A DNA stretch of 64,000 bases from Caldilineaceae bacterium. GTDB taxonomy: Bacteria; Chloroflexota; Anaerolineae; Caldilineales; Caldilineaceae. The position numbers and the translations under genes were made by a program. The number at the start of each line of letters is the position of its first letter. Positions within the stretch are counted from its first letter, which is position 1. Under the pieces are notes generated by a model. It made no database searches. It was not told where the DNA came from and saw nothing but the letters and a program-made list of their open reading frames with translations. Positions 8,747 through 45,919 of the stretch are shown one piece after another. The stretch spans positions 7,875 through 71,874 of the forward strand of contig JAHBVF010000015.1 of NCBI GenBank assembly GCA_019637685.1, in the 5' to 3' direction.

Positions 8747-10045
8747 CTACGCCGTGTCGGCATCCAAAGACAACACAGCGCTGTCATCATCATAGGCCAA
8801 TAGCTCGGCGTACCGTCCCCAGTTGACAATCGTTTCCAACTGTCGTGCTGCTTCTGGCGGCGGGAACTCCGATGCCAGGGCTGCCTGAATGACATCCCAG
8901 TCAAGCGCTTGCGCGCGCGCCGCCTGGATCAGCCCCAGTGCCCATTGGAAGACAGGCAGGCGCTGGATGCGGCTGGCAAATATCTCCTTGCGGGCCAGAA
9001 TAGAGGCTTCGGCAAAGGTCTCCCCCAGCGCGGTCAACGTGATATCGCCCGCTTGCACCGTGGCAAAACCCAAAAGCTCGGCCGCTTCCACCAGATTCAG
9101 CAGATCGTCGGAGTCCGGCCCCAGCTCCTCTGCCAGCCGGTAGATGTCTGCCTGCATCCGCGGCGCTGTGGTCAACCGTTCCAGCAGCGCGGCCAGATCG
9201 CTGATGACCACACGGGGCAGGCGGCGGGTTGGTCCTGGCTCGCCAGGGGCCGTGCCGATTTCCACAGCTTCCGGCTGGGTCTGGCCGGCCAGGATGGCGT
9301 ACACCTGATCCACCAGGGCCTGAAATTCGGCTGCCTTGCGCTGGCGCGGGTGGGCCAGGGGAACGGGCAGATCGGCAATGATGCGCCCCGGATTCTTATC
9401 CATAATCACAATACGGTCGGCCATAAAGACCGCCTCTTCGATATTGTGGCTGACCATTAGGATCGCTTTGGTGGGGATAAGTTTACCCGTCCACAGTTCC
9501 AGCAGTTCACCGCGCAGGGCCTCGGCGCTGAGAATGTCCAGTGCAGAGAACGGTTCGTCCAGGCAGAGCAGCTCTGGCTCATTGACGATGGCGCGGGCAA
9601 AGCCCACCTTTTGCCGCATACCGCCCGACAGTTCCCGGGGGTATGCGCTTTCAAAGCCATCCAGCCCCACGCGATCGATCGCTTCTTCGGCACGGACGGC
9701 GCGCTCAGCGGCAGGGATGCCTTTGGCTTTTAAGGCCAGGGCGACGTTTTCCAGCACTGTGAACCAGGGAAAGAGGGCGAAAGTTTGGAAGACAATGGTG
9801 GCGTGGGGATTGACACCGCGCAACGGCTGTCCCCGGTACAGGACTTCGCCCGCGGTGGCTGTTTGCAGGCCGGCAATAATGCGCAACAGCGTGCTTTTGC
9901 CGCAGCCAGACGGCCCCAGCAATGCCATAAACTCCCCTTCCTGCAGGGAAAGAGTTACATCCTCAATAGCCACAAAGCGCCGCGCGCCGCTTCCGTAGGC
10001 CATGGACACTTGGTTCACGTGCAAAAGCATCTGCGCTTCACCCAT
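8747..10045 (-). CDS. ABC transporter ATP-binding protein (NitT/TauT-type) with C-terminal extra domain
   Basis: Walker A GPSGCGKST, signature LSGGMRQKV, Walker B LLCLDEPFSALD. 432 aa. Confidence 0.85.
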   Translation of the reverse strand: MGEAQMLLHVNQVSMAYGSGARRFVAIEDVTLSLQEGEFMALLGPSGCGKSTLLRIIAGLQTATAGEVLYRGQPLRGVNPHATIVFQTFALFPWFTVLENVALALKAKGIPAAERAVRAEEAIDRVGLDGFESAYPRELSGGMRQKVGFARAIVNEPELLCLDEPFSALDILSAEALRGELLELWTGKLIPTKAILMVSHNIEEAVFMADRIVIMDKNPGRIIADLPVPLAHPRQRKAAEFQALVDQVYAILAGQTQPEAVEIGTAPGEPGPTRRLPRVVISDLAALLERLTTAPRMQADIYRLAEELGPDSDDLLNLVEAAELLGFATVQAGDITLTALGETFAEASILARKEIFASRIQRLPVFQWALGLIQAARAQALDWDVIQAALASEFPPPEAARQLETIVNWGRYAELLAYDDDSAVLSLDADTA

Positions 10046-27844: not shown

Positions 27845-28003
27845 GGGGTGCTCCGCATTCGGTGGTCAAATCGGTTGTGTCAAGTTGGTTGTGCCAAGTC
27901 GTATAGCTTACGTTAGCACAGCTACTGGTGGCTTCCAAACGGGCATTTGCGCGTGTTCACCCCGCCGTTTGCACCACAGTTTACATCGCCATTTACACCA
28001 CAG

Positions 28004-28116
28004 GCGACACGACCGGCTGACACCGATAGCAGTGAAAATCATCCACAGATAGCACAGATTTTCACAGGTTGAATCCGTGTTCCCTTTTATCCGTGTATAC
28101 AACCCTATTTTCAGAA
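28004..28116. repeat. ~105-nt conserved 5'-leader element, copy 1 (upstream of glgP)
   Basis: CGACACGACCGGCTGACACCGATAGCAGTGAAAATCATCCACAGAT...GAATCCGTGTTCCCTTTTATCCGTGTATACAACCCTATTTTCAGAACAG. >90% identical to 45803-45904. Confidence 0.65.
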
Positions 28117-28231
28117 CAGTTCACACCATCCAATACGGGAAAAGTTGGCGTGATCGTGCCTTGTCGAGTACAATCGACAAGAGATTGCCATGCAACCGGT
28201 TGCCCGAATGCGCCTACAGGGAGAAAACTTT

Positions 28232-32581: not shown

Positions 32582-32924
32582 GCGGTGGACCCCTTTGAGA
32601 CTTGCGTAGGACAGGGCCATTGGTCGATGGGAGGAGAGCGATGGAGGCGGTGGCTGCCCGTAGGACGATATTCAATTCGCCACCACTTTACTATGGGAAG
32701 AAGGGAAAGTCAACGTGGAATGTAAGGAAGCAGAGAAGAAGCCTGCCGCATTGCTGGTACAGGCTGTAGAGGCGCGGTTCCACAACCGGCAATCCCCGCT
32801 ATACTCTTATCTGTGCGCCAAAACACTCAGTTGTCATATTGGCCCACACTGCCACCACTGGCGATTGCATGGATACTGAAGTCAAGTCCGGACAACGTGT
32901 CAACACAACCCAAGGAGGAACACA

Positions 32925-33197
32925 ATGCGATTCGTCAAACTCTCTCACTTCGTGATTCTGGCCGTGATGGTGGCTGCCATGTTCCTGATGCCTGCCAACA
33001 CCTCCGTCTCCCAGGCTTCCTCGGAACCAGGGAAAGTCTATCTGAAGCACTACAACCAGTTCGGCTCTTGGGCCGGGTTGCACCAGATAGATGAAGAACT
33101 TAAATGGGAACTCACCAAAGCAATCCTTGACAAAGGTGGGCTGCCTACGGAAGAAAACATTGACTGCCTTCTTCACTATCCACGACCGTGTCCGTAG
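32925..33197 (+). CDS. small secreted hypothetical protein
   Basis: 90 aa with N-terminal signal-peptide-like segment MRFVKLSHFVILAVMVAAMFLMPANTSVSQA. Confidence 0.4.
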   Translation: MRFVKLSHFVILAVMVAAMFLMPANTSVSQASSEPGKVYLKHYNQFGSWAGLHQIDEELKWELTKAILDKGGLPTEENIDCLLHYPRPCP

Positions 33198-33279
33198 ACG
33201 GACAGCAGGCACAACCTGCAGACAAACAAACACCCGGCACTCATTGGCCGGGTGTTTGTTTTTGTGAGGACAAAGAAAA

Positions 33280-33522
33280 TCACTCGCCCCGCCGGGCCTC
33301 CCGAAAGCTCAACTCGCCGCTGCCCGTGAATCCATTGACCTTCCAATCCGCTACGCGTTTCCGACTACACCGTGTGCATTGGTATGTAGCAGCTTCGCTT
33401 TCTGAGAAGGCATTCGTACTGCGCACTTTAAGGCAGACCATGCGCAGCGCTCCCCCGTGTGAATCCAGACAGGTTTCATTGTCGCAATAGAGATCCAAGG
33501 CATCCATTTTAGGCTTGTCCAT
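33280..33522 (-). CDS. small zinc-ribbon protein (CxxC...CxxC)
   Basis: 80 aa with CDNETC and CTRCSRK cysteine pairs. Sits immediately downstream of mod on the same strand. Confidence 0.4.
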   Translation of the reverse strand: MDKPKMDALDLYCDNETCLDSHGGALRMVCLKVRSTNAFSESEAATYQCTRCSRKRVADWKVNGFTGSGELSFREARRGE

Positions 33523-33594
33523 GAGCGAAACTTCTCCTTTTCTGAGTTACCGGATTTTATCATCCACCAATTACACACGTCCGAGCGACCCGTA

Positions 33595-33960
33595 TATACG
33601 GTTGAAACCGCACAATCACCCGGAAACCGGAGGCTGACGGCGTGCCCACCAATCGTGCGGCTGCAAGCCGCACCTACGCATTCCCCCTACCGCACCCCAA
33701 AGACCTTCATCACCTCATCCCCCAAATGATTGATCACCTTCACCGCGATGCGCCTAAAGGCAGGCATCTGTAGGTGCGGTTTCCAACCGCACAATCACCC
33801 GGAAACCGGAGGCTGACGGCGTGCCCACCAATCGTGCGGCTTGCAGCCGCACCTACGCATTCCCCCTACCGCACCCCAAAGACCTTCATCACCTCATCCC
33901 CCAGATGATTGATCACCTTCACCGCAATGCGCCCGGAAGTGGGCTTGTCGAAGGGCCGGG
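33595..33960. repeat. tandem ~180-bp duplication comprising a REP doublet plus the last ~25 codons of mod
   Basis: Unit TTCCAACCGCACAATCACCCGGAAACCGGAGGCTGACGGCGTGCCCACCAATCGTGCGGCTGCAAGCCGCACCTACGCATTCCCCCTACCGCACCCCAAAGACCTTCATCACCTCATCCCCCA(A/G)ATGATTGATCACCTTCACCGC present twice (33602-33770 and 33782-33950). The second copy is the real mod 3' end. Confidence 0.75.
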
Positions 33961-36586
33961 AAATCTCGCTGTGCAGACTCTCCCAGGCTTCCTCGTCGAT
34001 CTCCGCCTTCAGCGTCGTCTTGAGCGAGCTGTAGGGGTCATTCGCCCCCAGAAAATAGGCGTGGCGCACAAAGAAGCTCTCCTCGTTGTAGTCCGTGTCG
34101 ATGAACCAGACCGCGATGTCATCCGGACCGCCCGACTGCACCTGGCCCGACTGGGGATGAAAGACATCCACCCCGTGAATCTGCACCCGGATTTGCCCGT
34201 CGCCCGTCGCCTGAATCTCGATGTCCGGCTCGCCGAAGATGACGAAGAGATTGCCCGCACCCGTGTTCTTGAGCGCATCGGCCATGTGCAGGTCCGCGTT
34301 CATGCGCGCTTTCAGCACAGGAATGCGCCCCAGCTTCTCGAACTCGGCGGAGTGGGCGTCGTAGTTGAAGGCGCAGGCGATCAGCACATCGAAGCCCGCA
34401 TCCCCCGCCTCCCTCGCCGCGGCCACCAGATCGGCCCTGGGCACAGTGCCAAACTCCGGGCCGATGAAGATGCCCGCCCGCCGCTCTTTGCCGTTCTCCC
34501 CCTCCTGATAGCGCCCCTCGGCGCACAGGTAATGGCCCGGCCAGCCGGTGAGGGTGGTGAAGCTGATGCGGTCCTCCTTGTGCGCCTGCTGTACCCCAGC
34601 CGTGCGCAGATTCTCCAAAATCACCTGGGTAAAGTCGATTTCGCTGGCGTACTTCTCCTTCTCCTCGTCGATAAAGTTGCCTGCGATCGGCTGCAACTCG
34701 TCGTTCTCGTCCACGGCCAGCACCCGGTGGGGCGAGAGCGACTCCACAGTGAAAGGCCCCGCCACCCGCACGGTATTGCGCTCCTCATAGGGTTTGTCGT
34801 AGAGGAACTCCTGATCCGAGTTGGCCGCAATCGAGGCGTCCATCTCCTGCTGGCGGGCGATGCGCTCGGTCCACCACGCCCCGTGCAGCTCTTTGGCCTG
34901 GGCCGACCACCCCTTCTCCGCCTCGCGGGGAATCTCCCACTCCTCCCAGGACTGGCCCAGAGCGGCGTTGAGCTGGCCGCGCAGGGGTTCCATCACCGCC
35001 TGAAACTGCTCCCAGATCACATCGATCTCGGCGTTGTTGGCGATGTCTTTGAGCATAATGTGGGGAACCCGCTCGTAGACAAAGCCGTGGCGGATGTTGC
35101 CGAAGGTGGGCGCAGTGGAGGGGGCGCTGCGGCTGACCTCCGCCTCTTTCAATTGCCCCGCCGGGGAATCGGCCAGCAGATAGTAGGGGTAGCGCGCCCC
35201 CATAATGCGGGCACGGGCCAGGGCCAGGGCCACCCGGCTGGTGTCGATGGTGATCCAGCGCCGCCCCCACTGCTCGGCGATATAGGCTGTGGTGCCAGAG
35301 CCACAAGTTGCGTCCAGCACAAGATCGCCCGGATCAGTGGTCATGAGAATGCAGCGTTGAATAACCCGCGTTGAGGTCTGTACTACGTAAATTTTGTCTT
35401 TGGCAAATGCACCAAACTGAGTATCCAGCCACCTATTATTCAAATTGGATACCGATCTTTCCGAGTAAAATTTCTTCACGCGAATTTGGGTTTCACTGAC
35501 CCTGACAATTCGATCTGCCTTTGCTATTCGATACATACCAACTGTATGTTCGTTACTCCAATGGCGAGCGGCTGATGGACGAAATTCCTGTCCTTGAAAT
35601 ACAAATACTTGCTCTTGGCTCGCTGCTCCCTGAGAGGTCAAATCTCCTAACTCGAAGCCGTCTTCATCCTGATTTTCTTTCGGCAAGAAGAGTGATCGAT
35701 ACTTCGTCTTGTCAGTTGCTTTTGCATACCATAAAACATAGTCGTTAACATTAGGAACGAAGTTCGATGTCCGGCCAGTGGAAGTGGCAAAACTAATGAG
35801 GGAAATGCAATTCTCCTCCCCAAAGACCTCATCCATCAGCGCCCGCACCCGATGCACATTCTCATCCCCGATCTGCACAAAGATCGACCCGCTCTCGGTC
35901 AGCAAATCTCGCGCCACGGTCAGCCGGTCGCGCAGATAGGTCAGATAGGAGTGAATGCCGTCCCGCCAGGTGTCCCGGAAAGCCTTCACCTGCTCCGGTT
36001 CCCGGGTGATGTGGTCGGCCTTGCCGTCCCGCACATCCCGGCTGGTGGTGGACCACTGGAAGTTGGAATTGAATTTGATGCCGTAGGGCGGGTCAATGTA
36101 GATGCACTGCACTTTGCCTCGCAGCCCCTCCCGCTCGGCCAGGCTGGCCATCACCTGCAAGCTGTCCCCCAGAATCATCCGGTTGGTCCAGTTGGCGTCG
36201 TGTTGATAAAAGTCCGTGGCCGTCGCCCCCTTCGGGATGCCGTTGAAGTCGGCGAAGAGGTCCAACTGCGCGGCCAACTCTTCCTGCCCGGCCGCGGCCC
36301 GTTCTGCACTCTGGCGCAGCAGGTCGTCGATCAGCACCTTCGGGTGTACCTTCTCCTGGATGTACAAGGGCGGCGCGGCCACCACCAGGTCGGACCAATC
36401 CTGCTCATCCTTGCCCCGCCAGACCAATTGGGGGTCCAAATCCCGGTTGCGCCGTGCATAGGCGATGCGGATGGGGCTTTTCTCCTCCTCCGCCATCACC
36501 GACTCGTATTCCGCGGTGGGGATGTTCGTGCGCCGGGCCTCGTCGTGTTTCAGGGTTTCTACGGTTTTGGGGGTGCGTGTCGCCAT
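33866..36586 (-). CDS. mod: Type III-like restriction-modification methyltransferase (Mod), N6-adenine/N4-cytosine DPPY class, long form
   Basis: 906 aa. DPPY catalytic motif (VQCIYIDPPYGIKFNSNFQ), C-terminal SAM-binding block LVLDATCGSGTTAYIAEQWGRRWITID, conserved N-terminal RRTNIPTAEY / PLYIQEKVHP blocks seen in Mod-type methylases, and a ~300-aa C-terminal extension. Confidence 0.85.
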   Translation of the reverse strand: MATRTPKTVETLKHDEARRTNIPTAEYESVMAEEEKSPIRIAYARRNRDLDPQLVWRGKDEQDWSDLVVAAPPLYIQEKVHPKVLIDDLLRQSAERAAAGQEELAAQLDLFADFNGIPKGATATDFYQHDANWTNRMILGDSLQVMASLAEREGLRGKVQCIYIDPPYGIKFNSNFQWSTTSRDVRDGKADHITREPEQVKAFRDTWRDGIHSYLTYLRDRLTVARDLLTESGSIFVQIGDENVHRVRALMDEVFGEENCISLISFATSTGRTSNFVPNVNDYVLWYAKATDKTKYRSLFLPKENQDEDGFELGDLTSQGAASQEQVFVFQGQEFRPSAARHWSNEHTVGMYRIAKADRIVRVSETQIRVKKFYSERSVSNLNNRWLDTQFGAFAKDKIYVVQTSTRVIQRCILMTTDPGDLVLDATCGSGTTAYIAEQWGRRWITIDTSRVALALARARIMGARYPYYLLADSPAGQLKEAEVSRSAPSTAPTFGNIRHGFVYERVPHIMLKDIANNAEIDVIWEQFQAVMEPLRGQLNAALGQSWEEWEIPREAEKGWSAQAKELHGAWWTERIARQQEMDASIAANSDQEFLYDKPYEERNTVRVAGPFTVESLSPHRVLAVDENDELQPIAGNFIDEEKEKYASEIDFTQVILENLRTAGVQQAHKEDRISFTTLTGWPGHYLCAEGRYQEGENGKERRAGIFIGPEFGTVPRADLVAAAREAGDAGFDVLIACAFNYDAHSAEFEKLGRIPVLKARMNADLHMADALKNTGAGNLFVIFGEPDIEIQATGDGQIRVQIHGVDVFHPQSGQVQSGGPDDIAVWFIDTDYNEESFFVRHAYFLGANDPYSSLKTTLKAEIDEEAWESLHSEISRPFDKPTSGRIAVKVINHLGDEVMKVFGVR

Positions 36587-36597
36587 TTGGATTGCCT

Positions 36598-37236
36598 TTG
36601 GTAGGTGCGGTTTTCAACCGCACATTTTCGATTGCCCCGTCAATATACGGGAATCGATTATCGTAGGTGCGGTTTGCAACCGCACGTTTTCGGAATGTCC
36701 CACATTGTGCGGGTTACGGATGGTGTGTGTGCGATTTGTAACCACAGATTCTTCGTCGTTCCCGCATTGTGCGGCTGCAAGCCGCACCTACGAATTGGAC
36801 GGTTGCCTTTTGTAGGTGCGGTTTGCAAAACCGCACATTTTCGGAATGTCCCACATCGTGCGGGTTACGAATGTTGTGTGTGCGATTTGTAACCGCACAT
36901 TCTTCGTCGTCCCCGCATCGTGCGGCTGCAAGCCGCACCTACGGGTTGGACGGTTGCCTTTGGTAGGTGCGGTTTGCAACCGCACATTTTCGGAATGTCC
37001 CACATCGGGCGGGTTACGGATGGTGTGTGTGCGATTTGTAACCGCACATTCTTCGCCATCCCCACATTGTGCGGCTGCAAGCCGCACCTACGGATTGGAC
37101 GGTTGCCTTTGGTAGGTGCGGTTTGCAACCGCACATTTTCGGAATGCCCCACATCGTGCGGGTTACGGATGATGTGTGTGCGATTTGTAACCGCACATTC
37201 TTCGTCATCCCCACATTGTGCGGCTGCAAGCCGCGC
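36598..37236. repeat. REP array L: ~4 tandem copies of a ~153-bp composite unit containing GTAG-type REP palindromes
   Basis: Unit GGTTGCCTTTGGTAGGTGCGGTTTGCAACCGCACATTTTCGGAATGTCCCACATCGTGCGGGTTACGGATGGTGTGTGTGCGATTTGTAACCGCACATTCTTCGTCGTCCCCGCATTGTGCGGCTGCAAGCCGCACCTACGGGTTGGAC repeated with few substitutions. Each unit has three hairpins. Ends at the RAYT stop. Confidence 0.85.
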
Positions 37237-37770
37237 CTACGGGTTGTCATCTTCGCTTTCTTGCCAATCGTATTCTGTGATGGATTCCGGCAATGCCCAT
37301 CCCCAGCCGTCGGGGTAGGCATTACGTTCCCGCCAGTGGTGGTAGCTGGAATGGGGCCAATCTTCCGGTCTGGCAACCAACCCGTGGTGCACCGGATTGT
37401 AATGGATGTAGTCCAGGTGGCGCTGAAAGTCGATTTCGTCCCGGATGATGTGGTCCCAGAATCCCTTTTGCCAGAAGTGCATTGGCCCAGAAGTTCCGAT
37501 TCGTTTTTTATACTCTTTGGTGAAATTCGGCTTGAGCGAATGCATAATATCGCTAAAATTGCTATCACCGGTGGGACGGATTAGCAGATGAAAGTGTTCG
37601 TGCAGAAAGACGTATCCCTGGGTGACAAAGGGGTGAAGCTCCTTCACATTGCCCAATATCTCACGCAAGAGGTCAAGATGCGTCTCTTCCCGAAAGACCG
37701 GGACACGGCGATCGACCACCTGCGTGATGAAGATGATTGCGTTGGGTACGTAATAACGTCGGATGTTCAT
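37237..37770 (-). CDS. REP-associated tyrosine transposase (RAYT; IS200/IS605-like Y1 HUH transposase)
   Basis: 177 aa. HUH motif HEHFHLLI and catalytic Tyr region FQRHLDYIHYNPVHHGLV. Flanked on both sides by REP arrays. Confidence 0.85.
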   Translation of the reverse strand: MNIRRYYVPNAIIFITQVVDRRVPVFREETHLDLLREILGNVKELHPFVTQGYVFLHEHFHLLIRPTGDSNFSDIMHSLKPNFTKEYKKRIGTSGPMHFWQKGFWDHIIRDEIDFQRHLDYIHYNPVHHGLVARPEDWPHSSYHHWRERNAYPDGWGWALPESITEYDWQESEDDNP

Positions 37771-37774
37771 ATTT

Positions 37775-38188
37775 TCCCGTGGGTGCGGTTTTCAACCGCA
37801 TAATTGTTGGCGTATCCATCATTTCCCAGGATTCGATACCTGTGCGGCTGCAAACCGCATCTACAATTTGAGATGTTGTGGGTACGGTTTTCAACCGCAC
37901 AATCGTCGGCGTTTCCTTCATTTGCCAGGACTCGGTACCGTTTTGTAGGTGCGGTTTTCAACCGCACAATCGTCGGCGTTTCCTTCATTTGCCGGGATTC
38001 GATACCTGTGCGGCTGCAAGCCGCACCTACAATTTGAGATGTTGTGGGTGCGGTTTTCAACCGCACAATCGTCGGCGTTTCCTTCATTTTCCGGGATTCG
38101 ATGCCTGTGCGGCTTGCAGCCGCACAATTGTCGGCCTTCCCGCCACCTACCGGAATTCGATACCTGTGCGGCTGCAAGCCGCACCTAC
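37775..38188. repeat. REP array R: ~3.5 tandem copies of a ~117-bp unit with REP doublets; last REP overlaps the res stop codon
   Basis: Unit TGTGGGTGCGGTTTTCAACCGCACAATCGTCGGCGTTTCCTTCATTTGCCGGGATTCGATACCTGTGCGGCTGCAAGCCGCACCTACAATTTGAGATGT. The final GCACCTAC provides the TAG stop of res. Confidence 0.85.
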
Positions 38189-41100
38189 AAAATGGCCGCT
38201 TCAATCAACTTGTTGAAATCCGCCTCAATCTCAAAGACGGCTTTGAACTCGGCAAACTGCCAGCGGCCCAGTGTGCCCAAATTGTTCACCCCCGGTACCC
38301 AATAGCTCTTCATCGTGTTGGACTTGTCCTTCACATCCTCGCCCCGAAAGCCCTTGATTTCCACCACCAGATTGAGCAGGTCAGCCCGCCCGTCGTCGAT
38401 CTGCACGATAAAGTCCGGGATATATGTGCGTTTGGTCGAGCCGTAGAGGTAGGGCACTTCCAGCCCCAAGCCCTGGTTCTTCACATAGGCCCGCACACGG
38501 GGATGGGCCTCGGCCACCCGGCAGAACTCGGATTCCCAGTCGCTGTCACAGACCACCCAGTTGATGTGGCAGTGCTGGGGAGATGTCTTCCAGCGGGTCT
38601 CTTTGGAGGTGTTGAAGTTGACGTGGATGGTGGAGCCGGTGGGGTTATAGGCGTCCAGAATCGCTTTGATGGGCCGGTCGTCGGCCATGGATTCGGTGAT
38701 GGCGGCGGCGATACGCTCACAGGCCATATCCCCTATCTCTCGGTAGATCAGTTGGGCCGGATACGTGCCACCGGTACAGCGCAGATAGCCCCCTTCCAAC
38801 CACTGCTGGGCAATGCGCTTCAACTGGCCGAAGAGATGCAGCTTGGGTTCTTCGCCCGGATCACGGAATTTGCTGTAGAGCAGATGCTTGGCCAGATGGT
38901 AGAGCAGCGTGGACTGGCGCATCCCTTCCAGATGCTTCACATTCAGGTCGATCCCTTCGCCGATAATGCCCTCGTTGCGGGTCACCGAAGGGCCGACCAG
39001 CAGCGGCGTCAACTCCAGCACAGAATCTGGGCCAAAGGTGGCCGTGAGCTTCTCTGCCGGCAGCTCCACCCGATAGCCCTCCACCCGGGGAAATTGAATC
39101 TCCAAAGCGTCCCGCTCTGGTCGCACAGCCATCACCTGCACGGTCTGTTTGGGTGGTTTGGGGGCCACCACCACTGGCTTGGCCGTGAAGTCAAAGGGGA
39201 TGCCGAAGACATCCGCATACTCCACATTGAACAGCCCCTCCTCGTTCAATTCGTAGGATTGGCGGCGCAGGGCGCGGCCCACCACCTGCTCGCACAGCAG
39301 TTGTGTACCAAAGGCCCGCACCCCCAGCACGTGGGTCACGGTGTTGCAGTCCCAGCCCTCGGTCAGCATGGAAACCGAGACCACACAGCGCACAGATTCG
39401 CCCAGCCGCCCTTCCTTGCCTACGGTATTCATCACCTCCCGCAGCAACTCCTGGTCGCTAATGTTCTGGCCGTCGGCCTGGTTGCCGCTGCGCTCCACAA
39501 TCTCCCGGCGAAAGCGTTCGATTTCGTCCGCCGCCATCTCCCGAAAATCGTTGTCCAGAGCGTCGCCGGACTCAAGCTGTTCGCTGTCGATGAGCAGGGT
39601 ATTGGGCCGGGCCAGCCGGTTGCCCCCTTCGTCGTAGTTGCGGAAGAGGGGCAGCCGTCCTGCATTGTAGGCTTCCGTCTCCCCATCTTCCCCCAGCCGT
39701 TGAAAGCCGGAGATATAGTCGTAGACCAGCTTGGAGGTGGAGGTGTTGTTGCAGACCACAATAAAGACCGGCGGCGTCCCAATCCCAGCCCCCTGCCAGA
39801 GATCGAATATCTTCTCGTAGTGGCCGTAGAGGGCATCCAGCGCGGTCTGAAGCTCGGCGGGCAAAGCCAGCGGGTCCAGATTCTTGCTGGCCTTGCCCCG
39901 CCCCTTCTTGGGCATCTTCTTGCCGATATGCTCCCATAGGTTGCGGAATTTGGGCATATCCCCGCCGGGGATATTGTCGGCCACAGGCACACGGGGCAGC
40001 TTGACAATCCCACACTCGATGGCGTCCATCAGGGAGAAGTCGCTGGCTGCCCAGGGAAAGAGGGTGCCTTCGGCATAGCCGGAGCCGCGCAGGAAGAAAG
40101 GCGTGGCCGAGAGGTCATAGACCTTCTGCACCCCCAGCTTGCGCTTGACCACTTCCAGCCCGGAAATCCACAACCGGGCGGCCTCGTTGGCCTTCTGGGC
40201 CTCCTTGCGGTCGTCCCCCTTCAAATCCTCAAAATCTTCGTTGTCCGGTTTCTCCCGGTAGCAGTGGTGGGCTTCGTCGTTGAGCACCAGCACATTCTTC
40301 ATGCCCATCAGTTCCGGCATCACCCGCTGGATCATTTGGCCTTCGCTCTCCAATGTCTGCAACTCCGGCCCTCGCCCTTGCAGAAATTCCCGGCTGGTCT
40401 TGGAGAGGCTCAGACGTTCGCGCAGTTTGAAGGAATGGTAGTTGGTGATGACGATTTTGGCCCGGTCCAGATCGCCCAGCATATCGCCGGGCACCAGCTC
40501 CCGGCTGCGGTAGTAGCTGTCCGGGTCGTTGGGGTGCAGCACCCGCAGGCGGTCCCGAATGGTGATACCCGGCGTCACAATCAGAAAGCCCCGGGTAAAG
40601 GCGCGGCTGCGGGGATGGCGCACCGCGTTGATGGTCTGCCAGGCAATCAGCATGGCCATCACTGTCGTCTTGCCTGCACCCGTAGCCAGCTTCAGCGCAA
40701 TCCGCAACAACTCCGGGTTGGCCTGTTCGCTGGCCCCCTGGAGCAGGTCCAGAGTTTCCTTGCCCTGGGCCGAATTGGGTGCGACCTCCGCCAGCCAGAT
40801 GGCCGTCTCCACCGCCTCCACCTGGCAGAAGAAGGGGCGAATGCCCTGAAAGGGATAGCTGCGCCAGTGTTGCAGCAGTCGCTGGGTCTCCGGCGTCACC
40901 CCCCACTTGCCGGGGTCGGGAATCTGCCGCCAGCGGTCCACCTGGGCGCGGATGGCGTTGATGTTGCCGGTGGTGTCGTATTGCTGCTCGTCCGTGGAGA
41001 TGCCCTCTTCTTCCCCCAGCACCAGGGCCAACTGTTGATCCTTCGACTTGCGCCGCTTCTTGGGCTTGGGCACAGGGGTCACAAACTTGGCCGTGCGCCG

Positions 41101-41238
41101 AAAGTCGAGAATCTGATTGGTGGGTTGGCCGTCTGCGTCCAGTTCCCAATGGCGGGCTGGGTAGGTGTAAGGGGAGTTAAGGATGGGTTTCTCGAAGAAT
41201 TGTTCTGTCATCGTGTTCCTATATTTACGCGGTTGCAC
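38185..41238 (-). CDS. res: Type III restriction enzyme Res subunit (SF2 helicase + endonuclease)
   Basis: 1017 aa. N-terminal FFEKPILNSPYTYP...TPETQRLLQHWRS block; Walker A LATGAGKT; DEAH box LVLNDEAHHCY; helicase motif VI region QVVGRALRR; C-terminal endonuclease-like domain. Confidence 0.85.
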   Translation of the reverse strand: MQPRKYRNTMTEQFFEKPILNSPYTYPARHWELDADGQPTNQILDFRRTAKFVTPVPKPKKRRKSKDQQLALVLGEEEGISTDEQQYDTTGNINAIRAQVDRWRQIPDPGKWGVTPETQRLLQHWRSYPFQGIRPFFCQVEAVETAIWLAEVAPNSAQGKETLDLLQGASEQANPELLRIALKLATGAGKTTVMAMLIAWQTINAVRHPRSRAFTRGFLIVTPGITIRDRLRVLHPNDPDSYYRSRELVPGDMLGDLDRAKIVITNYHSFKLRERLSLSKTSREFLQGRGPELQTLESEGQMIQRVMPELMGMKNVLVLNDEAHHCYREKPDNEDFEDLKGDDRKEAQKANEAARLWISGLEVVKRKLGVQKVYDLSATPFFLRGSGYAEGTLFPWAASDFSLMDAIECGIVKLPRVPVADNIPGGDMPKFRNLWEHIGKKMPKKGRGKASKNLDPLALPAELQTALDALYGHYEKIFDLWQGAGIGTPPVFIVVCNNTSTSKLVYDYISGFQRLGEDGETEAYNAGRLPLFRNYDEGGNRLARPNTLLIDSEQLESGDALDNDFREMAADEIERFRREIVERSGNQADGQNISDQELLREVMNTVGKEGRLGESVRCVVSVSMLTEGWDCNTVTHVLGVRAFGTQLLCEQVVGRALRRQSYELNEEGLFNVEYADVFGIPFDFTAKPVVVAPKPPKQTVQVMAVRPERDALEIQFPRVEGYRVELPAEKLTATFGPDSVLELTPLLVGPSVTRNEGIIGEGIDLNVKHLEGMRQSTLLYHLAKHLLYSKFRDPGEEPKLHLFGQLKRIAQQWLEGGYLRCTGGTYPAQLIYREIGDMACERIAAAITESMADDRPIKAILDAYNPTGSTIHVNFNTSKETRWKTSPQHCHINWVVCDSDWESEFCRVAEAHPRVRAYVKNQGLGLEVPYLYGSTKRTYIPDFIVQIDDGRADLLNLVVEIKGFRGEDVKDKSNTMKSYWVPGVNNLGTLGRWQFAEFKAVFEIEADFNKLIEAAIL

Positions 41239-41464
41239 CGATTTGGGCAGCCAGCGAACTGGTGATTATGTGTTCCTATCCTCGTCTTTGACTTCTAAGG
41301 TATCGATCCAACTCGGTTCTGTTTCCATTTCGTTATGTCACTTGGGGGGGCTCAAGCGCTGATTGCAGACCGAGCAGCGTTAGCCACGCTTTCGATTTAT
41401 CCCTGCGTAAGTCTAGCATAGAGTACTTGCCTGGACAATTGATTGCATGCAGCGTCGGAACCCC

Positions 41465-41762
41465 TGCACAAGCACCAGTCATCGCTGCACAACTACTCGT
41501 CATCATTGCACAAGCACCGGTCATCGCTGCACAAACACTCATCACCCCTGCACAGCCATCCACCATCACCGCGCAACTACTCGTCATCACTGCACAGCCA
41601 CCCATCATCGCCGCGCAAGCACTCATCATTGCCGCGCAAGCAGCAGTCACCAGCGCACAAACACTCGTCATCACTGCACAGCCACCCATCATCGCCGCGC
41701 AAGCACTCATCATTGCCGCGCAAGCAGCAGTCACCAGCGCACAAACACTCGTCATCACCACA
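41465..41762. repeat. 14-copy tandem repeat with 21-nt period (GCACAAnCACTCGTCATCnnn); all frames open
   Basis: Minus-strand frame gives heptads xxMxxCA (VMTSVCA LVTAACA AMMSACA AMMGGCA ...). Plus-strand frames give His/Cys-rich (CTSTSHR CTTTRHH ...) or xxIxAQx heptads. Units are not identical (substitutions between copies). Confidence 0.8.
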
Positions 41763-41821
41763 CAGACCCCGATTCCTAACCAGCCCTTTTCTTGGAGATT
41801 AAAGAATTGATCGGGCAATAG

Positions 41822-41891
41822 CGTAGGTGTGGCTTGTAGCCACACGTCTCTGGGCATCCCTTATCTGTGCGGCTTCAAGCCGCGCCTACCC
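41822..41891. repeat. REP doublet (GTAGGTGTGGCTTGTAGCCACAC ... GTGCGGCTTCAAGCCGCGCCTAC)
   Basis: Same GTAG-type palindromes as the RAYT-flanking arrays, ~580 nt upstream of res. Confidence 0.7.
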
Positions 41892-42129
41892 GTCCCCAAT
41901 TTTTTCTTGATCCACAACCAAAGGTGGTCACTGAGGCATTTCTGCAAATACCAAGTTAATATTTTGCAACATTACGCAAAATCTACTATAGTCCGCTCTC
42001 TTTTCGTGTGATAATTTGTGGCCAATCGTAATTGCAATTGCCGATTCCTAACGTTGTTCGATTTGATTTCATGCGGGCCAGGGCTGAATGCCACAGCAGG
42101 GCCTGCCACTATCCAGAAAGGAAATTCAT

Positions 42130-45762: not shown

Positions 45763-45802
45763 CAAGTCATCCATGCATATCAGTATCTATTTATACATCA
45801 GT

Positions 45803-45904
45803 CGACACGACCGACTGACACCGATAGCAGTGAAAATCATCCACAGATTCTCACAGATTGAATCCGTGTTCCCTTTTATCCGTGTATACAACCCTATTTT
45901 CAGA
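45803..45904. repeat. ~105-nt conserved 5'-leader element, copy 2 (ends 15 nt before membrane-protein start codon)
   Basis: >90% identical to 28004-28116. A degenerate third relative (GAAATCCGTGTGAATCCGTCCCATCCGCGTTTATCCGTGTT) overlaps the photolyase stop at 45505-45560. Confidence 0.65.
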
Positions 45905-45919
45905 GCAGGAGTCCATTCC

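Follow-up and report, generated by a model that had tools for sequence, protein, structure and literature searches.

We analyzed a restriction-modification (R-M) locus in a 64-kb stretch of DNA (hereafter, the window) from a metagenome-assembled genome (MAG) of a Caldilineaceae bacterium, phylum Chloroflexota. In this locus the genes of a restriction endonuclease (res) and a methyltransferase (mod) are separated by a gene for a REP-associated tyrosine transposase (RAYT) and by arrays of repetitive extragenic palindromes (REPs). A RAYT gene together with the REPs on its flanks is called a REPtron. Our preferred interpretation, to which we assign a probability of roughly 0.6, is that the locus is a Type III-like operon with both genes intact, belonging to the BPTD_3080 family, in which a resident REPtron occupies a permissive cargo slot between res and mod, and that this REPtron has long been inherited and is co-transcribed with the operon. 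All parts of the locus are of known kinds. What is new is that a REPtron is stably nested in a defense operon and that one of its REPs is fixed at the res stop codon. Neither a selected regulatory role of the REPs nor a mobilization of the locus by the RAYT is supported.

Organization of the locus

The list of open reading frames (ORFs) of the window includes three co-oriented genes on the minus strand, namely res, the RAYT gene, and mod. The res ORF occupies positions 38185-41238 and encodes 1017 amino acids (aa) if counted from the first GTG codon; the conserved start MTEQFFEK corresponds to the ATG at 41211, which gives a protein of 1008 aa and a gene at 38185..41211. The RAYT gene (37237-37770) encodes 177 aa and mod (33866-36586) encodes 906 aa. 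The gap between res and mod is 1,598 bp long (36587-38184) and contains one real gene, that of the RAYT, and 19 GTAG-tagged REP hairpins, and nothing else. The original prediction, made from this DNA alone, described intact co-oriented res and mod genes parted by 1.6 kb of only REPs and a RAYT gene, and both the ORFs and the catalytic motifs confirm this description.

The REP core was defined as the 19-nt palindrome GTGCGGYTNNMRAMCGCAC, with at most two mismatches permitted. The window contains 23 such cores, while 0.23 are expected by chance. Eight cores are located between res and the RAYT gene (37783-38184) and 11 between the RAYT gene and mod (36605-37236). Three more cores were found past mod (33655, 33774, and 33834) and one 5' of res (41867), the latter with a degenerate partner at 41827. 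There are no cores in the remaining ~55 kb of the window, and all 23 are within 4.2 kb of the RAYT gene. No REPs were found in the outer flanks of related loci either (~10 kb flanks). Within these limits, i.e., 64 kb here and ~10-kb flanks in relatives, the REPs are distributed only locally around the RAYT gene.

A perfect 5' GTAG accompanies 15 of the 23 cores. Neighboring cores alternate in orientation and thus form inverted pairs, i.e., REPINs. The arrays are made of tandem units, as revealed by the core scan and the search for tandem repeats. The array between res and the RAYT gene (37779..38190, eight cores) consists of 99-bp and 166-bp units; the array between the RAYT gene and mod (36592..37246) includes a 149-bp unit repeated 3.9 times, with degenerate copies in addition to its 11 cores. 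The REP doublets past mod belong to family D8 and lie in a 179-bp tandem duplication (33606..33933, 1.8 copies), which takes in the last 67 nt of mod. The doublet 5' of res, a GTAG-tagged REPIN of family D4 detected by the REP scan and by folding, is at 41823..41891 on the minus strand. These copy numbers are derived from a MAG and may be compressed. REPs thus do bracket the locus, as had been stated. The doublets reported outside it are present on both sides, but there is a single REPIN upstream of res, and the downstream repeat covers the end of mod.

The positions of REPs relative to the stop codons are precise. The TAG that ends res (38187-38185) belongs to the GTAG of a REP, and the TAG ending the RAYT gene likewise lies within a REP GTAG; in both cases, therefore, a hairpin starts directly after the stop. 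The mod stop codon precedes the first GTAG by 13 nt, so all three ORFs have a REP at most 15 nt from the stop codon. Right behind the res UAG, the predicted folding energy is -14.4 kcal/mol for the single REP and -56 kcal/mol for the first REPIN. The RNA of the array between the RAYT gene and mod folds with -305 kcal/mol (z -14.8), the REPIN 5' of res forms a long hairpin (-35.8 kcal/mol, z -5.5), and the REPIN past mod, in the 179-bp duplication, folds with -47.5 kcal/mol.

The RAYT itself scores 139.8 bits against the NCBIfam model REP_Tyr_transpos (NF047646; cut-off 80) and therefore belongs to this family. It is a TnpA_REP-type HUH-Y1 transposase: it matches E. coli TnpA_REP (PDB 4ER8) with E 4.7e-24, and the HUH motif (HFH) and the tyrosine motif YIHYNP are conserved. 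A protein 100% identical to it is present in the databases, encoded in a Caldilineaceae MAG contig. With REP hairpins on both sides of the gene, 5' GTAG tags, and inverted pairs, the insert is a REPtron. The window contains one RAYT gene only.

Against orthologues, the RAYT gene has a ratio of nonsynonymous to synonymous substitution rates (dN/dS) of about 0.06; the corresponding values are 0.07-0.18 for res and 0.16-0.25 for mod. Purifying selection thus acts on all three, and each of them is maintained by it.

Classification of the R-M system

Res matches the NCBIfam model of BPTD_3080 family restriction endonucleases (NF046055) with 1366.7 bits, the equivalog cut-off being 800. The match spans residues 15-1011 of Res and positions 1-969 of the 970 of the model, i.e., it is full-length. 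The Pfam domain ResIII is found with E 9.4e-8 and RE_endonuc is found weakly. The superfamily 2 (SF2) ATPase/helicase motifs GAGKT, DEAH, SAT, and QxxGRxxR and the C-terminal PD...EIK are conserved in alignments with 51-77 homologues. Both the helicase motifs and the nuclease motif PD933...E951-I-K953 are invariant in 27-77 homologues, so Res shows the order of an SF2 ATPase followed by a C-terminal PD-(D/E)XK nuclease that is typical of Type III.

Res does not belong to the curated Type III Res families: it scores 19 bits against PRK15483 (cut-off 564), and the PADLOC model REase_III gives partial matches with E from 4e-5 to 7e-4. In a profile comparison with EcoP1I Res by hhalign, helicase motifs V-VI alone align, with 59% probability. 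There is no significant PDB match of a solved structure resembling Res. The attempt to connect Res by sequence with a solved structure or with EcoP1I Res was abandoned, since helicase motifs V-VI were the sole alignment. Our search of the literature found no paper on BPTD_3080. In-frame stops in seven res homologues were considered as a sign of pseudogenes and set aside, since they are probably caused by alignments running on 5' of the true start.

Mod is a beta-class N6/N4 DNA methyltransferase of the Type III kind. It scores 1339 bits against the PADLOC model MTase_III (PDLC03632) and matches Pfam N6_N4_Mtase with E 3e-32; among solved structures, the Type III Mods 6K0W and 4ZCF are nearest to it. 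In alignments with 51-77 homologues, the order of elements is DPPY, a hypervariable region at approximately aa 265-400, CGSGTT, and a conserved C-terminal extension of ~400 aa. This is the architecture of a Type III Mod, a beta-class N6-adenine methyltransferase (DPPY ... FxGxG) with an internal recognition domain. The hypervariable region, which is the target-recognition region, corresponds to 35389..35805 of the minus strand. This stretch does not align at the DNA level with any related locus, its identity in sliding-window comparison is 21-26%, and its column conservation is very low.

Of the Pfam domains suggested as a check, ResIII was thus found in Res and N6_N4_Mtase in Mod. The label "Type III-like" is fair for the system, as Mod belongs to a Type III family and the domain order of Res is of the Type III kind. 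"Type III" is not established, because Res falls into a family of its own, BPTD_3080, and the order of the genes is non-canonical: wherever both genes were found, in the window as in the related loci, res precedes mod, instead of the mod-res order of Type III. Compared with the Type III systems EcoP1I and EcoP15I, the locus has in common the two genes, the beta-class DPPY Mod with a central variable recognition region, which is related to the EcoP15I Mod, and a Res composed of an N-terminal SF2 ATPase and a C-terminal PD-(D/E)XK nuclease. It differs in that res is first, Res has no significant full-length similarity to EcoP1I Res, Mod has the conserved extension of ~400 aa, and there is a variable cargo slot between the genes. 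In spite of the split, we expect the two genes to make up a functional R-M system.

The res-mod spacer as a cargo slot

Related loci were collected by scanning one genome per species, which gave more than 540 res relatives. We compared 80 genome loci (L001-L080), of which 68, with both genes found, were scorable for the res-mod arrangement. Res relatives with 70-76% identity occur across Chloroflexota, Cyanobacteria, Proteobacteria, Verrucomicrobiota, Acidobacteriota, Actinomycetota, and other phyla.

The two genes are adjacent in all 68 loci. The spacer is 29-230 bp long in 18 of them, and in some mod starts 2-6 nt after res. In the other 50 loci the spacer is 0.35-4.1 kb long and contains other, mostly co-oriented genes; examples are L011:13054-16116, L016:13051-14231, and L020:12553-14802. 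Pfam domains in 65 spacer ORFs include Bro-N (seven cases), NYN (five), and GmrSD, HATPase_c_4, DUF4062, and PIN (four each), and further Fic, BrnT, HepT with nucleotidyltransferase (MNT), YhcG/DUF1016, and others. The start codon (ATG or GTG) of about 20 cargo ORFs overlaps the res stop codon. DUF4062 was recently described as an anti-phage family (bioRxiv 10.64898/2026.06.25.731849).

In the BPTD_3080 R-M family, the space between res and mod is thus a general cargo slot, which is empty in about a quarter of loci. Most loci carry genes in the spacer, and therefore a split res-mod pair is the normal state of the family. In the original prediction the split stood out as a layout that could set the Res:Mod ratio; that it is something special is not borne out, as about 50 of the 68 related loci hold unrelated genes in the same place.

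Type I R-M operons also have embedded accessory or defense genes, for example prrC and rloC between hsd genes. Here, too, the genes of an interacting R-M pair are parted by variable cargo, which is often toxin-like or defense-like, and the R-M genes are kept. The differences are the class of the R-M system and the occupant, which in the window is a transposase-derived gene with its repeats. To our knowledge, no role in phage defense is known for this occupant. The BPTD_3080 R-M systems are very widespread and conserved, and their slot, rich in toxin-antitoxin, GmrSD, and DUF4062 genes, is a cheap hunting ground for new accessory defense genes.

Some spacers contain repeats and no RAYT gene. 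A GTAG-tagged inverted repeat is located in the Oscillochloris locus (L004:13803-13876), long CGTAAT-type hexanucleotide runs are arranged as inverted arrays in L008:13026-13724, and L076:13118-13218 contains a 35-nt inverted repeat with 97% complementarity.

Age and history of the nested REPtron

A RAYT gene between res and mod is present in at least six other lineages. Two of them are among the genome loci, namely an Anaerolineae MAG (L001), with res 94% identical to that of the window and six REPs in the spacer, and a Caldilineaceae MAG (L002), with res 89% identical and 18 spacer REPs, as compared with 19 in the window. These are the nearest genomes, and their REPs are of the same family as those of the window. 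The other four (L081-83, L084, L094, and L140) were found by RAYT-based searches. The RAYT identity to the window is 88% for L081-83, 75% for L084, and 75% for L094. In L140 the RAYT gene is frameshifted while res and mod are intact. In five of the six lineages (L001, L002, L081-83, L084, and L094), with res 76-94% identical, the stop codon of res coincides with the TAG of a REP GTAG, as in the window. The junction in L140 is different, with a res TAA followed by 24 nt.

A recent insertion had been proposed, and we reject it: the same arrangement is common to relatives whose RAYTs are 75-88% identical, and across the six lineages with a RAYT gene in the same spacer only the REP copy number varies. 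This is the outcome that the original prediction had named as speaking against a recent insertion. The layout is old and particular to one Chloroflexota sub-lineage. The window and L001 share synteny over 9 kb 5' of res, beyond the outer REPIN, and share none downstream of mod; the upstream synteny implies one common chromosomal site. At synonymous sites the two diverge by 0.45-0.47 in res and mod, as compared with 0.71-0.83 in five flanking genes; for the short RAYT gene this divergence is saturated.

Two other scenarios were also rejected. A recent exchange of the cassette through the res 3' and mod 5' arms would require a rise of identity towards the spacer, which is seen neither in L084 nor in L140. 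The RAYT of L140 is not an independent distant one: its 52% identity is due to the frameshifts, and the gene is a decaying copy of the same clade with 69% nucleotide identity.

We suppose that the REPtron settled in the slot long ago in one Chloroflexota sub-lineage and was then inherited with the operon. E. coli TnpA_REP binds and cleaves single-stranded REP hairpins at GTAG. The RAYT of the window presumably acts on single-stranded REPs in the same way and would thereby seed nearby copies, and the REP arrays would grow and shrink by local duplication. The REPINs would have been seeded only into the adjoining intergenic spaces beyond res and mod. The sole trace of seeding would be the REPINs in these first intergenic spaces, which flank the locus on both sides in the window and L002 and on a single side in L001, L084, and L140.

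Several observations weigh against simple co-descent of the REPtron with the operon. REPtron-bearing loci are not monophyletic and occupy three places in the neighbor-joining trees of Res and Mod. There they interleave with L003, which has a tight junction, and with L004 and L008, which have other cargo. L084 groups with the Oscillochloris locus L004, and L140, with its different junction, is far away. The rank orders of identity are also discordant: comparison of the RAYT genes (window 37237-37770, L001:13124-13651, and L081:10001-10531) gives 88% between the window and L081 and 78% between the window and L001, while for res the window is 94% identical to L001 and 81% to L081. The polyphyly and the discordant rank orders argue for recombination or repeated acquisition, and indicate a mosaic history with recombination, loss, or re-acquisition of the REPtron. 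Two further parts of our interpretation are bounded by scope. The promoter and terminator scans described below rest on E. coli-type consensus and may miss Chloroflexota signals, and the statement that REPs are local only is based on 64 kb and on ~10-kb flanks in relatives.

Expression of the operon and possible effects of REPs

An extended -10-like motif, aTGcTAGACT..., is located at 41419-41396 on the minus strand, about 190 nt 5' of res. The same 24-mer (at most three mismatches) occurs 5' of res in L001 (9442) and, in L081-83, 5' of a Mrr_cat gene that is followed by res. A conserved leader follows the motif. From its consensus and its conservation, 41396..41419 is the best candidate for, and probably is, the promoter of the operon. 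No intrinsic terminator or sigma-70-like promoter was predicted on the gene strand inside the spacer by scans with E. coli-type consensus, which may miss Chloroflexota signals. Res, the RAYT gene, and mod would thus form a single transcript, with the RAYT gene and mod read through from the promoter ~190 nt 5' of res. For REPtrons, read-through was suggested earlier as the way in which the RAYT is expressed (PMC3733652).

In relatives with 88% RAYT identity, a gene with Mrr_cat/NA-iREase1 lies immediately 5' of res (L081:6335-6868, 177 aa; L083:2696-4546, 616 aa). The common promoter-like motif ahead of the Mrr-like gene and res in L081 and L083 suggests a stacked restriction operon.

REPs stabilize upstream mRNA. 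In E. coli, a REP less than 16 nt from a stop codon down-regulates translation of the upstream gene, according to Liang et al. 2015 as summarized in PMC12306157. If the same holds here, the hairpins at the stops of res and the RAYT gene and 13 nt past the mod stop would make the mRNA 5' of them more stable and reduce the output of the ORFs that precede them, and the REP arrays would shape the decay of mRNA segments. By this analogy, the REPs abutting stops probably damp the Res and RAYT proteins, and the Res level would be lower than in a REP-free operon. A regulatory side-effect of the REPs on Res is therefore plausible.

One could go further and suppose that the REP arrays are an adaptive device, kept for setting the Res:Mod ratio or for delaying Res in an operon where the toxic gene is first, so that the REPtron would work as a component of the R-M system. 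This accounts for the res stop codon lying within a REP GTAG in five lineages with res of 76-94% identity, and for a strong hairpin within 15 nt of every one of the three stops, and it has a precedent in the translational damping of E. coli. Nevertheless we consider it unlikely. Loci of the same family do without REPs, and those with tight junctions or unrelated cargo are the majority; res and mod of L140 remain intact although its RAYT gene is frameshifted; the REP copy number is not conserved; and the clade also includes RAYT genes that lie, with REP arrays of the same kind, beside housekeeping genes.

The RAYT clade in other loci

RAYT genes with 64-75% identity to that of the window always have GTAG REP arrays on their flanks. 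Several are located in or beside other defense loci. In Litorilinea aerophila (VIGC02000035.1, L088:7089-11521), a 65%-identical RAYT gene with REP arrays separates cas10/csm1 from csm2, in the same orientation, in a type III-A CRISPR-Cas operon. In L085 the RAYT gene adjoins RT-Cas1/Cas2, in L096 it lies between two NACHT-FGE genes, and in L108 it follows a helicase/MZB-NADAR-SNF2 cluster. In L086, L087, L089, L095, and L101 it adjoins housekeeping genes. A general enrichment of defense genes beside the RAYT family was rejected: in the wider family (40-88% identity, 66 loci, Pfam search of 103 neighbor ORFs) the neighbors are mainly housekeeping genes. Nesting in defense loci thus appears to be a trait of the sub-clade with 64-88% identity and not of RAYT genes in general.

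Among 528 close RAYT homologues, those with a named source come from Caldilineaceae, Anaerolineales/Anaerolineae, Litorilinea, or unclassified Chloroflexota. The remark that RAYT/REP systems are mainly described in Proteobacteria is not supported, as such systems are common in Chloroflexota. GTAG REPs were already reported in Chloroflexi (PMC3733652), and together with the abundance of homologues this means that the Chloroflexota host is no novelty.

These contexts bear on the possibility that the REPtron hitch-hikes, i.e., rides an often-transferred R-M operon for horizontal spread. Such a scenario is compatible with our preferred interpretation. The identity of 70-76% between res genes of many phyla implies frequent transfer of the operon, REPtron-bearing R-M loci are found at different genomic sites with different flanks, and their polyphyly in the res and mod trees as well as the location of RAYT genes of the clade in or beside other defense loci (L088, L085, L096, and L108) fit it. 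Horizontal transfer has also been invoked to explain why tnpA_REP is distributed patchily (PMC6006769). As the main explanation, however, hitch-hiking seems to us improbable. The common chromosomal site of the window and L001 points to vertical descent, the wider RAYT family has mostly housekeeping neighbors, and all taxon-labelled REPtron loci are from Chloroflexota, with no cross-phylum nested form among the 80 genome loci.

A related and quite doubtful idea is that this RAYT lineage has settled as a lasting passenger or partner in an R-M operon that itself spreads horizontally. The operon would offer a vehicle and a read-through promoter, and would gain REP hairpins sitting precisely on the res stop codon, which would restrain the toxic Res encoded first. 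If true, RAYT/REP systems would have a defined function for the host and a way to spread between lineages. The nested locus is a small testable system for the question of why single-copy RAYT genes and their REPs persist and how they arrive in new lineages. If the REPtron is a merely tolerated passenger, the locus is a tidy and ordinary relic of a mobile element in a permissive intergenic site.

The outer REPINs allow one more interpretation, namely that the entire REP-res-RAYT-mod-REP unit is a composite element mobilized or rearranged by the RAYT. Besides the distribution of outer REPINs given above, it is in agreement with the synteny to L001 stopping exactly at the REP doublet past mod. 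We regard it as very improbable. On the upstream side the synteny runs on past the outer REPIN, each locus has one copy with no empty site or second copy found, and a unit of ~8 kb is far above the known substrates of Y1 transposases. Moreover, REPtrons are reported not to transpose as units (PMC6006769). Finally, an assembly artefact, in which res and mod were joined through collapsed REP repeats of a MAG, is hardly credible: REP arrays do break assemblies, and contigs L081-L083 end within them, but the same gene order was found in at least seven independent assemblies and res-mod adjacency in 68 of the 80 loci, i.e., in all with both genes found.

Comparison with the E. coli REPtron

The closest counterpart of the nested element is the yafM REPtron of E. 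coli K-12 (Ton-Hoang 2012, Messing 2012, Quentin 2018). Both have one HUH-Y1 gene with the RAYT signature, GTAG hairpins in inverted pairs on both sides, and strong purifying selection on the gene. The REPtron of the window differs in being co-directional inside an operon of two interacting defense genes, in its long tandem REP arrays, in its host, which is a member of Chloroflexota, and in having REPs within ~4 kb of the RAYT gene and not dispersed, as far as the sequence at hand extends. In the classical case, one RAYT gene per genome is accompanied by tens to hundreds of cognate REPs scattered over the chromosome. In some E. coli strains a toxin-antitoxin operon is present in place of the REPtron (PMC6006769). 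This swap mirrors the alternation of REPtron and toxin-antitoxin cargo in the res-mod spacer.

Surroundings of the locus

The genes around the R-M locus are housekeeping ones, namely glycogen-phosphorylase-like, Band 7, and photolyase genes. Scans of the window for tRNA genes and Rfam families gave no matches.

Between the upstream REPIN and the putative res promoter (41460-41765) there is a 21-bp tandem repeat of about 14 copies, also seen as 42-bp and 84-bp units. It is open in several frames, and the gene strand would encode a Cys/Ala/Met heptad repeat in an ORF of 174 aa. At the equivalent position, L001 has an unrelated 43-bp repeat in six copies (9057-9319).

An AT-rich element of ~130 nt is present in two direct copies (27991-28119 and 45789-45908), which are 92-96% identical, 17.8 kb apart, and located on both sides of the R-M-containing region. 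Each copy is at or just 5' of the point where a plus-strand ORF begins: in one case this is the phosphorylase-like gene, in the other a 398-aa ORF, whose called start (45773) precedes the copy. The element has no Rfam match. The second copy lies in sequence conserved in L001, so the element is not a recent attachment site.

No homologues of the 174-aa repeat ORF 5' of res, of a 144-aa ORF (32799-33233), or of an 80-aa ORF (33283-33522) were found in any related locus. The 80-aa ORF lies on the minus strand directly beyond the REP doublets past mod and has two CxxC-like pairs and a good Shine-Dalgarno sequence. It is followed on its 3' side by a bidirectional terminator-like hairpin (33236-33256).

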